Shown: positions 4,559 to 7,082 of the stretch, one piece after another
Numbering within the stretch: the first letter of the stretch is position 1
Layout: the number at the start of each line of letters is the position of its first letter
Source of the DNA: Candidatus Shapirobacteria bacterium
GTDB taxonomy: Bacteria; Patescibacteriota; Microgenomatia; UBA12405
DNA: 64,000 nucleotides
Direction of reading: 5' to 3'
Assembly: GCA_041661765.1 (NCBI GenBank)
Contig: JBAZTV010000002.1
Span: 139,130-203,129, forward strand
Position numbers and translations under genes: made by a program
The notes under the pieces: generated by a model
Told to the model about the DNA's origin: nothing
The model's database searches: none
Seen by the model: the letters and a program-made list of their open reading frames with translations, nothing else

Positions 4559-5962
4559 ATGAAATATTTGAAATTTTTAATTCCTTTAGTGTTAATTTCA
4601 CTTTTTATTTTTCTACGTTTTTACAACATCAAAGACTCTTTATTTTTTTTCAATGACCTAGGAAGAGACTTATTAGTTCTACAAAATTGGCAATTATCAG
4701 GCAAACCTCCACTTTTAGGACCACAAACCAGTGTTATTCCTTTTAATCAATCGAGTATTTATTTTTACTATCTTTATATTTTTTATATAATCACCAACGG
4801 TAGCGTTTTTTCCGCCCTATTTGCCAATGCCTTTTTATATATTGCCATGTATATTTTTGGATTGATTGTTTTTAAAAAAGACAAAAAAATTATCACTATT
4901 TTAAATATTTCTTTTTTTCTTATTAGTATTCACCCACAATATATCGCTCAAAGCCGTTTCGTTTGGAATCCATCATTAGTAACTCCATTCATAACGTCTT
5001 CTTTCTTGTCTTTTTATTTATTAACACAAAAATATTCCAAAATTAAACTTTGGATTTTTTCTCTTTCTATTGCCACCGCCATCTCCCTCTCTTATTCAGT
5101 TATTCCCTTATTTATAGCATTTTTTGTTTATTGGTTAATCTTCTATCGAAAGTATTTCTTTAAAATATTTTTTTCTATATTTGCCTCTTTTTTATTTCTA
5201 AATACAACTACTGTTTTTTTTGAGCTAAGACACAATTTTTTATTAACCAAAAGCCTTTTGTTTAAATCTGCTTCACCTCAATCAAGTATCGGTATCAATG
5301 AAAAATTTAATGATATTGCCAAATTTGTAATTGATTTACCAAATCAAAATACTAACCAATACATTCTTTTATTATTTGTACTTTTATCAATTGTCCTAAT
5401 AATTAAACAATTTAAAAACAAAAACATTACATTGTTTACCAGTATTATATTTCTTCTCACTTTTTTGACCTATTTCATTCTCCCAGTGTCTGTCCAAGCT
5501 CATTATATATTTCCTATTATTTGTTTATTGTTTATAGCTATTGCCAGTCAACCCATAATTAGGTCAACAATAATCGTTTTTCTTTTATCTTTACTTTACT
5601 TAACCCCAATAAATTTAAATTCATATTTTCAAAAAGCCCCACGTACATATTCTCAAATGGAACAATGTTTCAAAAAATACTGTCAAAAAAACCCAGAACC
5701 AATAAACGTTTCTGTAAATTCTTCTTATCATCCTTACCACAATGGTCCAGAACATCGCTATTTATTAAAAAAATCAGGTTGCAATGTCCAAGTTTTAGAA
5801 GACGGACAAAAAGCAAAAACCATGGCATTAGTGTTAGACAATAATACTTTTGATCCAGAAAAATCAAATTTTTATGAGTTAGATCTCTTTGGCCCTTATC
5901 AAACAGATAGTACTCTTAATTGTCTACCTAATCTCCAAATTTTAAATTTAATTAACAAATAA
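4559..5962 (+). CDS. polytopic membrane protein, GT-C fold glycosyltransferase-like (PMT/ArnT-like)
   Basis: 467 aa with more than 10 predicted TM helices. A DxxxRD-like motif (NDLGRD) sits in the first loop, as in GT39/GT83. Confidence 0.4.
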   Translation: MKYLKFLIPLVLISLFIFLRFYNIKDSLFFFNDLGRDLLVLQNWQLSGKPPLLGPQTSVIPFNQSSIYFYYLYIFYIITNGSVFSALFANAFLYIAMYIFGLIVFKKDKKIITILNISFFLISIHPQYIAQSRFVWNPSLVTPFITSSFLSFYLLTQKYSKIKLWIFSLSIATAISLSYSVIPLFIAFFVYWLIFYRKYFFKIFFSIFASFLFLNTTTVFFELRHNFLLTKSLLFKSASPQSSIGINEKFNDIAKFVIDLPNQNTNQYILLLFVLLSIVLIIKQFKNKNITLFTSIIFLLTFLTYFILPVSVQAHYIFPIICLLFIAIASQPIIRSTIIVFLLSLLYLTPINLNSYFQKAPRTYSQMEQCFKKYCQKNPEPINVSVNSSYHPYHNGPEHRYLLKKSGCNVQVLEDGQKAKTMALVLDNNTFDPEKSNFYELDLFGPYQTDSTLNCLPNLQILNLINK

Positions 5963-6025
5963 TCATATCAATTTACTTAAATAATCATATCAAAATGATG
6001 TGATTATTAATTTAATATGATATTA
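5958..6025. promoter_or_regulatory. operator-like repeat array upstream of the HTH-Fic gene
   Basis: AAATAATCATATCAA is directly repeated at 5957-5971 and 5979-5993. A 13-bp imperfect palindrome AATAATCATATCA-aaa-TGATGTGATTATT spans 5980-6008. A further TGATATTAT copy lies at 6016-6024, all within 75 bp before the ATG at 6033. Confidence 0.35.
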
Positions 6026-6032
6026 TCTATTA

Positions 6033-7082
6033 ATGAATAACTTGAATGACCGACAGTTAAGAATTCTAGAAATTTTAAAGCCAGAACAGCCTATTAGCCC
6101 TAAGGAAATATTAGAAAAATTGAATCAAAAAGTTTCTATTGTCACTATTTCCCGAGACCTTTCTGAATTAGTTGATTTAAAATATCTTTATAGAAATGGC
6201 AATGGACCTGCAACTAAATATTTTCTTTTAGAAAAAGCTTTATTTTTCCGACCGGTTGATTATCAAAAATATTTTAAAATCGAAACAGACAAAAGAGATA
6301 TTATTAGTAATTTTAATATGAAAATTTTTACTCAACTTTCTAAACTCTTAATTTTTACCCCAAAAGAACAAACTCAACTGGAAACACTTGATTTAAAATT
6401 TAGAAAAAATTATTCTCAATTATCACCAACTATAATTAAAAAAGAAATTGAAAGAGTAACTATTGAACTCAGTTGGAAATCTAGTACTATTGAAGGAAAC
6501 ACCTATTCTCTTTTAGAAACTGAACGCCTAATTAAAGAAGGTACTGAAACAAAAGGTAAAAAGAAAGAAGAAGCTATTATGCTTTTAAATCACAAAAAAG
6601 CTTTGGATTTTGTCTTTGAAAACAAAAATCTGTTTAAAGAAATTAATCGTTCTAAAATTGAACAATTACATAAAATAATTACCCAGGATTTAAATATAAC
6701 TAATAATCTTAGAAAAACTCTAGTGGGTATTACTGGCACTAAATTTAAACCATTGGATAATCAATTTCAAATTATAGAAGCTATCGATAAATTTTGTATA
6801 TTAGTTAATAATACTCAAAATATTTTTGCCAAATCTTTACTGTCAATTATTATTTTGAGTTATATTCAACCATTTGAAGATGGCAACAAGCGTACCAGTC
6901 GAATTTTAGGCAATGCTATTCTTATTGCCGACAATAGTTTTCCTTTACCTTTAAGAAATGTTGATGAAAATCTTTATAAAGAAGCCACTTTGCTTTTTTA
7001 TGAACAAAATAATTTAAATTTATTTAAACAAATGTTTTTAGATCAATGTAATTTTTCAGTTGAAAATTATTTTAGAATTTAA
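6033..7082 (+). CDS. Fic-family protein with N-terminal winged-HTH; catalytic motif degenerate
   Basis: The N-terminus is DeoR-like wHTH (RQLRILEILK...VSIVTISRDL). The Fic core shows STIEGN, then QPFEDGNKRTSR in place of the canonical HPFx[DE]GNGRxxR. The catalytic His is Gln and GNGR is GNKR. Confidence 0.7.
   Translation: MNNLNDRQLRILEILKPEQPISPKEILEKLNQKVSIVTISRDLSELVDLKYLYRNGNGPATKYFLLEKALFFRPVDYQKYFKIETDKRDIISNFNMKIFTQLSKLLIFTPKEQTQLETLDLKFRKNYSQLSPTIIKKEIERVTIELSWKSSTIEGNTYSLLETERLIKEGTETKGKKKEEAIMLLNHKKALDFVFENKNLFKEINRSKIEQLHKIITQDLNITNNLRKTLVGITGTKFKPLDNQFQIIEAIDKFCILVNNTQNIFAKSLLSIIILSYIQPFEDGNKRTSRILGNAILIADNSFPLPLRNVDENLYKEATLLFYEQNNLNLFKQMFLDQCNFSVENYFRI

Follow-up and report, generated by a model that had tools for sequence, protein, structure and literature searches.

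A winged-helix Fic protein family with glutamine and lysine in its catalytic motif and a candidate operator of four half-sites

The window analysed here is a 64-kb stretch (64,000 nucleotides, nt) of a contig from Candidatus Shapirobacteria, AT-rich with a G+C content of ~30 %. It carries a gene whose product combines an N-terminal winged helix-turn-helix (wHTH) with a Fic domain, and which is directly preceded by an array of four half-sites. We moderately favour the view that the array (5958-6030) and the gene (6033-7082) constitute a solitary, self-repressing module, in which the Fic pocket would act as a sensor. Autoregulation by the wHTH-Fic protein, already put forward in an initial annotation of this DNA, is strongly supported by the sequence comparisons presented below: the array travels with the gene, its four-site architecture with 22-bp spacing was encountered across phyla, and the half-sites change along with the recognition helix. 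Among Fic-HTH autoregulators, the protein would belong to a bacterial family that is very large and as yet uncharacterised.

The wHTH-Fic protein and its altered motif

The wHTH-Fic gene (6033-7082, + strand, stop codon included) encodes 349 amino acids (aa) and was delimited from its open reading frame (ORF), Pfam matches, homologues and an AlphaFold2 model. The initial annotation had let the feature begin at position 5958, which is correct for the first repeat but not for the gene. The nearest relatives of the window were metagenome-assembled genomes of Candidatus Shapirobacteria (Patescibacteria). Membership of the Fic/Fido superfamily was indicated by Pfam domain PF02661 at aa 204-297 (E=6.4e-10), and the AlphaFold2 model, built from 50 homologues, reached a pLDDT (predicted local distance difference test) of 95.2 and a pTM (predicted template modelling score) of 0.92. 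None of the solved structures came from the wHTH-Fic family itself; the top profile match was FICD, restricted to the Fic domain (E=1.8e-15). The N-terminal wHTH, which had been recognised initially, occupies aa 1-66 (6033-6230, +) and coincides with a cluster of sub-threshold Pfam winged-helix matches (HTH_11, DeoR, ArgR and Penicillinase_R) at aa 4-64. Its recognition helix, VSIVTISRDLSELV, is located at about aa 35-48 (6135-6176, +).

The Fic motif QPFEDGNKRTSR (aa 279-290, 6867-6902, +) was paired by HMMER with YIHPFIDGNGRTSR of FICD, and in the column-for-column alignment with FICD HPFIDGNGRTSR, Gln279 stands opposite FICD His363. Two residues depart from those of canonical AMPylating Fic proteins: the catalytic His is replaced by Gln279 (codon CAA, 6867-6869) and the second Gly of GNGR by Lys286 (codon AAG, 6888-6890). 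The other motif residues (F281, D283, G284, N285, R287 and R290) were invariant in a 50-sequence alignment, in agreement with the earlier description of a Fic core intact except at its catalytic positions. The same alignment displayed full conservation of S150, E154 and G155 of the inhibitory helix, whose motif SSTIEG (aa 150-155, 6480-6497, +) fits [ST]xxxE[GN] with Glu154 and pairs with TVAIEG of FICD. Being encoded in the same chain and N-terminal to the Fic core, this helix places the protein in class II. The flap, which forms the target-docking beta-hairpin of Fic enzymes, corresponds to RKTLVGITGTKFKPLDN (aa 227-243, 6711-6761, +) and pairs with RFRTTQVLVG of FICD; R227, G235, P240 and N243 were invariant, and V231, G232, I233, T234 and T236 nearly so. 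Altogether, 53 columns were invariant in an alignment of sequences sharing 48-94 % identity.

The change from His to Gln reported initially is real and, like the change from Gly to Lys, extends to the whole family. All 120 closest homologues (48-94 % identity; from Patescibacteria, Bacteroidota and others) displayed QxFxDGNKRxxR. When 1.84 billion cluster representatives were searched exhaustively with a profile, 679 clusters were retrieved at E<=1e-30, and Q..[GVA]NKR was present in 113 of the 116 motif-bearing top matches. Approximately 550 relatives, spanning at least eight phylum-level groups, were inspected: among those with a readable motif, all but three kept the Gln (one His, one Arg and one unclear) and all but the unclear one kept the Lys. 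Codon usage was examined in 81 family genes, namely that of the window and those of 80 genomic loci (loci compared with the window are designated by numbers with the prefix L). The Gln position was encoded by CAA in 49 and by CAG in 31 of them, the remaining one having the His codon CAC, and the Lys position by AAA in 64 and AAG in 17. As the residues are family-wide and both synonymous codons of each are in use, they do not result from a sequencing error; judged from these alignments, the Gln/Lys substitution is old and under selection.

The only His-bearing relative among the 80 loci (L050, 2212-3249, HPFIDGNKRTSR, codon CAC) has a 94 %-identical relative, P0271, with Gln (QPFIDGSKRTSR), the Asn being changed too. 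Among 120 relatives of L050, 118 displayed Q..NKR, and the other two had Gln and Lys with either the Gly or the Asn altered. A sister subfamily from Proteobacteria (~450-470 aa) was found to share the N-terminal wHTH and displayed QxFxDVNKR in 115 of 116 sequences. One of its members, located on plasmid p1 of Cereibacter azotoformans (L089, 2900-4374), consists of 458 aa with the motif QPFEDVNKRVSR and a C-terminal extension. It is preceded by three tandem direct repeats (GATCRYGACATG) and adjoined by hipA and parDE toxin-antitoxin genes.

Since Gln279 replaces the catalytic base and Lys286 sits in the anion hole, the Fic half as predicted here cannot perform canonical His-dependent AMPylation, and in this respect the initial annotation, which had considered such activity unlikely, was right. 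Its description of a dead Fic fold did not hold equally well. As the flap, the inhibitory Glu and what remains of the active site are strictly conserved, 'dead' is an assumption. The invariance of the inhibitory Ser and Glu, the flap, the Asp, the Asn and both Arg residues argues instead for a working pocket, and it is likelier that this pocket binds something than that the fold is a dead scaffold.

The half-site array and the recognition helix

The initial annotation had described two direct copies of a repeat, an inverted repeat and a third half-site upstream of the gene. The repeats were found again, and their number was raised to four. F1 (5958-5970, +) and F2 (5980-5992, +) are direct and identical, AATAATCATATCA; R3 (5996-6008, -), TGATGTGATTATT, and R4 (6018-6030, -), TGATATTATCTAT, are inverted. 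F1 overlaps the stop codon of an upstream 467-aa ORF (4559-5962, +), which displayed no Pfam match, and is kept in orthologues that have a different upstream gene. F2 and R3 form a near-perfect palindrome, the core of F2 being invariant in the orthologue alignment and the reverse complement of R3, AATAATCACATCA, matching F1 and F2 at 12 of 13 positions. R4, which ends two nt before the ATG, is degenerate in the window (9 of 13) and reads TGATATGATTTAT in orthologues (12 of 13). Start-to-start distances are 22 nt for F1-F2 as well as for R3-R4; correspondingly, AAATAATCATATCAA is present in two exact copies and no more, one at 5957-5971 and the other at 5979-5993, with an offset of 22 nt.

In the window, the exact 14-mer was restricted to the two direct sites, and the F2-R3 palindrome (up to three mismatches) was found once, against 0.02 in shuffled sequences. 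Even when the null model was derived from the 75-nt region itself, which is very conservative, only 0.55 % of 20,000 simulations contained an exact direct repeat of at least 14 nt. The loose 9-mer ATCATATCA, with one mismatch allowed, was not enriched window-wide (30 occurrences for 31 expected); significance applies only to the clustered array. No match of the array leader to Rfam was obtained at E values up to 1.

When one genome was scanned for each species, at least 572 relatives were confirmed, most of them in Bacteroidota and others in Patescibacteria, Alpha- and Gammaproteobacteria, Oligoflexia/Bdellovibrionales, Cloacimonadota, Chlorobiota and Opitutales; thousands of metagenomic sequences add to these. 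The spread across phyla is patchy, with 45-53 % identity. A generic score, based on the most repeated 8-mer, could not separate upstream regions of Fic genes from controls in AT-rich DNA, and a spacing-aware test was adopted for that reason. It considered the 130 nt upstream of each gene and asked for a 7-mer, with at most one mismatch, arranged as two direct and then two inverted copies in pairs 21-23 nt apart; upstream regions of other ORFs from the same loci served as controls. All four sites were detected in 41 of 79 Fic upstream regions (52 %) and in 11 of 201 controls (5.5 %; Fisher p=1.6e-17), with 8 of 395 among shuffled sequences. Three or more sites were displayed by 60 of 79 Fic upstream regions compared with 27 of 201 controls (Fisher p=1.8e-23) and 46 of 395 shuffled sequences.

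In Bacteroidota, the sites occupy fixed positions at about -84, -62, -42 and -20 from the ATG and have the core GCTCA/TGAGC, TAGCTCA being present in 41 of 80 upstream regions for 2.3 expected. A TAnnTT[TA][GA] box abuts the last site, which follows directly after it, in 36 of 58 loci of the Bacteroidota type. Promoters of Bacteroidetes are characterised by TAnnTTTG at -7, and the presence of the box beside the last site therefore places the array on the promoter in these loci.

The half-site sequence varied by lineage, and every class was associated with its own recognition-helix sequence. The window protein, with SIVTISRDL at aa 35-43, belongs to the class ATCAYATCA, whose helix is xxxT[ILV]SRDL. 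The others paired ATCCTATCA with SVPTLNRDL, ATCGCATCA with SQITLTREL, ATCGTATCA with [PS]LITIKRDL, ATTGTATCA with SR[IA]T[VI]VRDL, GTAACAT with TRMTISRDL, GCTCA with SYAT[VL]KRIL and GGACA with xxRTxKRI[IL]. T38 and R41 were constant across all helix classes, and T-[ILV]-S-R-D-L was present in all 14 further loci of the window's half-site class, at 60-94 % overall identity. Such co-variation is to be expected if the array is read directly by the wHTH of the adjacent gene.

Orthologues sharing 80-89 % identity were found in different neighbourhoods. The 467-aa ORF is present in L001 and absent from L003, where a sulfatase gene directly abuts the Fic array upstream, and in L006-L008 the module lies in a UvrB context. 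When the window lineage is compared with 80 %-identical copies in unrelated contexts, nucleotide homology extends from the first half-site to the stop codon, which defines the conserved unit as array plus ORF, ~1.13 kb in length.

Several variants of this unit were encountered. Two copies are decayed: in L095 (6260-6400), F1, F2 and R3 are fused to what is left of a Fic(Q) gene, only its final ~15 codons, and L121 (2613-2700) retains an array without a detectable gene. The number of half-sites shifts by whole 22-nt units, five being present in L136 (51-150) and three in L138 (590-689), where the palindrome lies only 6 nt from the ATG. On plasmid 8 of Bacteroides finegoldii (L090, 2971-3882), a 303-aa 'Fic family protein' with 49 % identity to the window protein aligned only from query residue 56 onwards and hence has no wHTH; no four-site array was evident in the 350 nt upstream of its gene.

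Genomic context and relation to known Fic proteins

Neighbouring gene families (ORFs of at least 70 aa) were compared in 79 loci from other species, and none was recurrent. The 108 immediate neighbours matched 149 Pfam families, none of which was present in more than three loci, and no conserved small ORF (25-90 aa) was found beside the gene. The lack of a conserved neighbour points to a self-contained module rather than to a classical pathway regulator. Neighbours were housekeeping genes and not defence islands or mobile elements. Phage records provided only five matches, all at the domain level, about ten relatives were detected among 2.9 million viral contigs, and plasmid matches mostly belonged to the sister subfamily, which is 29 % identical.

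The initial annotation had also suggested a regulon, to be defined by a search for the repeat motif, and had named the absence of the motif from any other promoter as evidence against its proposal. The palindrome was found nowhere else in the window, and the 14-mer with up to two mismatches gave scattered single matches only. An exact metagenome-wide scan for the palindrome returned 56 loci, of which 12 precede orthologues, starting mostly 25-28 nt downstream of it, and two are the remnants L095 and L121. The others were mostly one recurrent coding sequence or terminator-like hairpins, with a few unsorted singletons (for instance L099 and L120), and did not outline a regulon. Apart from these singletons, matches outside contexts of the chance type were thus confined to orthologues and remnants, and by the annotation's own yardstick the regulon fails but autoregulation does not. 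The same palindrome, in its perfect 23-nt form AATCATATCAAATTGATATGATT, was observed within one highly conserved non-Fic coding sequence, met in many metagenomes (L093, L098, L100, L107, L110 and ~15 more loci).

Downstream, the UDP-glucose 6-dehydrogenase gene (ugd; 7094-8389, +), identified by Pfam, starts 11 nt past the Fic stop codon. It lies directly 3' of the module in the Shapirobacteria relatives L001-L005 and in neither L006-L008 nor the 79 loci from other species. No terminator-like site was found in the 11-nt gap (7082-7094). Given the short gap and the lack of a terminator, the two genes may be co-transcribed and the module may also gate transcription of ugd, in a context that is specific to this lineage. 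Convergent with ugd is a giant ORF of 2512 aa (8454-15992, -) with MBG_2, bacterial surface Ig-like, FlgD-Ig and fn3 domains, whose product presumably resides at the cell surface.

Across inhibitory helix and Fic core, the protein was matched best in sequence and structure by FICD/HYPE, SoFic, CbFic2, BT_2513 and Dde_2494, and the inhibitory-helix sequence IEGNT(L/Y)(S/T)L is common to the window protein and class-II Fic enzymes. In contrast to the window protein, these five are (de)AMPylases with HPFxDGNGR, and their wHTH, where present, is C-terminal. Both SoFic and CbFic2 carry a wHTH, and DNA stimulates the activity of CbFic2 (PMC10628234), for which no sequence-specific operator is known.

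CccR of Yersinia pseudotuberculosis (PDB 7xux) combines a class-II Fic domain with an HTH and acts, through palindromes near -35/-10, as a repressor of its own promoter; its regulation and toxicity are independent (PMC9755527). With its class-II Fic domain, HTH and self-repression, it is a functional analogue of the window protein as predicted here. The HTH of CccR is however C-terminal and its N-terminus DUF4172-like, whereas the wHTH of the window protein is N-terminal. CccR has a canonical HPFGNGNGRTVR with the essential His192 and AMPylates FtsZ, in contrast to Q...NKR of the window protein. It is, moreover, an effector of the type VI secretion system with an operator made of a palindrome pair, whereas the window module has no secretion context and displays a 2+2 array at 22-bp spacing.

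The window protein resembles P1 Doc, the Fic-fold kinase of the Phd/Doc toxin-antitoxin system, in having Lys for the second Gly of the motif (NKR). Doc retains the catalytic His, lacks the final motif Arg, consists of a single domain of ~125 aa and is inhibited in trans by Phd. The window protein, on the other hand, has Gln, keeps R290, carries an inhibitory helix in cis and a wHTH, extends over 349 aa in two domains and has no partner gene. It scored 15.7 bits against the Doc profile TIGR01550, below the cut-off of 38.65, and displayed no Pfam match to Fic_N or DUF4172, which sets it apart from the SoFic/CccR/CbFic2-type architecture. With the Doc profile and this architecture both failing, the protein should be filed under neither. 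BepC and AvrB, which have non-catalytic Fic folds, are secreted effectors directed at eukaryotes, with differently degraded motifs and no DNA-binding domain.

The altered motif itself was noticed before. Khater & Mohanty defined in silico a clade 'D2' of Fic/Doc sequences with Qx[FY]x[DE][GV]NKR, 45 'usually single-domain', Doc-like sequences whose variant they considered to be retained by selection and to have an unknown function (PMC4454073). Their motif fits the window protein (QPFEDGNKR) as well as the sister subfamily (QPFEDVNKR). That report mentions no wHTH, inhibitory helix, operator or autoregulation, and the window protein is FICD-like class II rather than Doc-like. It was the sole mention encountered, dating from 2015; no description of the family's wHTH, inhibitory helix, operator array or co-variation was found in the literature.

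Proposed mechanism, alternatives and significance

In the favoured mechanism, the N-terminal winged helix would bind the protein's own array, probably as a higher oligomer since two direct and two inverted sites are arranged at 22-bp (two-turn) spacing. Occupancy of the array would repress, or occlude, the promoter of the gene. This promoter must sit inside the array if the position of R4, ending 2 bp before the ATG, is considered. A nucleotide-type ligand or a protein partner would be bound by the Fic half, and such binding would either be coupled to DNA binding or constitute the output of the module.

Several observations weigh against this mechanism. A protein regulating solely itself needs another output, and none was identified. 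The strict conservation of the catalytic apparatus, apart from the His and the Gly, is no less compatible with an enzyme than with a passive sensor. Promoter occlusion was deduced from position only, as no sigma-70 consensus promoter was detected in 5958-6032. About a quarter of the family's upstream regions fail the strict three-site test, several of which (for instance L010, L055, L068, L079 and L086) display arrays when inspected by eye, and the co-variation between helix and half-site is a statistic that ignores shared ancestry. Finally, no experimentally studied member of the family was found in the literature.

Tentatively, and at a rather low probability, the Gln/Lys pocket could have acquired a new chemistry or ligand while being wired to a co-evolving four-site operator; the Fic half, neither dead nor a passive scaffold, might then catalyse hydrolysis or de-modification, transfer phosphate in the manner of Doc but without the His, or receive a nucleotide signal. 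A doubtful but substantial alternative is a one-protein toxin or defence module, in which a non-canonical Gln/Lys enzyme is active, the inhibitory helix acts as a built-in antitoxin and the wHTH keeps expression low. Such an enzyme could transfer phosphate like Doc, with the nucleotide inverted, could use Glu154 and Gln279 to position a water molecule for hydrolysis or de-modification, or could carry out a substrate-assisted transfer. The kinase mechanism of Doc was reportedly described by Castro-Roa et al. in 2013. An active enzyme would account for the invariance of D283, N285, K286, R287, R290, E154, S150 and the flap residues, which a mere scaffold would not need, and NKR is a Doc-type motif (PMC4454073). 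The gene is also solitary, autoregulated and patchily distributed across phyla, relatives are labelled 'prophage maintenance system killer protein/predicted transcriptional regulator' in IMG, and the sister-subfamily copy on the Cereibacter plasmid adjoins toxin-antitoxin genes. Two PADLOC candidates, PDC-S04 (E=2.6e-16) and SoFic (E=3.4e-15), gave matches that point in the same direction, but these are confined to the Fic domain, the SoFic model covering positions 55-222 of 361. Furthermore, the catalytic His is called indispensable in the Fic literature, and CccR activity was lost on its mutation (PMC10628234, PMC9755527). Housekeeping neighbours and rarity in viral contigs speak against a defence or mobile role, as does the lack of an antitoxin-like partner, though class II needs none.

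It is quite improbable that the repeats are not the protein's operator and instead serve the upstream gene as its terminator or as a 3' element, are bound by some other factor, or mark an end used in recombination or mobility, with the wHTH binding elsewhere or nowhere. F1 does overlap the upstream stop codon, neither a terminator nor a promoter consensus was called in the array, and the perfect palindrome was met elsewhere in metagenomes, both as terminator-like hairpins flanked by runs of A and T and in one conserved coding sequence. The array is, however, tied to the downstream Fic gene, at a fixed distance from its ATG, while the upstream gene differs between L001, L003 and L006. Its two-direct-two-inverted layout with 22-bp spacing is unlike a hairpin terminator, its half-sites change with the recognition helix, and it had no counterpart in Rfam.

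Misreading of CAT as CAA during sequencing, or a recently inactivated pseudo-enzyme drifting towards loss, was rejected as having a practically negligible probability: L050 has His and the decayed copies L095 and L121 exist, but the His is a singleton with a nearly identical Gln-bearing relative, Gln and Lys are near-universal with synonymous codons in use, and 53 columns are invariant.

Current annotations describe members of the family merely as 'Fic family protein' or 'prophage maintenance system killer', and standard profiles miss both the wHTH and the operator. Fic enzymes are defined by their catalytic His, whereas a very large, phylum-spanning family has here exchanged it for Gln, with Lys in the anion hole, in a site that selection has frozen. 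Either Fic chemistry extends beyond AMPylation-type transfer, or the Fic pocket has been turned into a sensor. For protein-DNA recognition, the family amounts to an unusually clean natural experiment, with at least eight operator 'dialects' and distinct helices on one fixed four-site architecture, in which operator prediction and specificity swaps are directly testable. If the pocket does have a new chemistry or ligand, these proteins would form widespread one-protein, self-repressing sense-and-act modules, present in the genomes of at least 570 species, which would have spread horizontally while their DNA specificity diversified for insulation.

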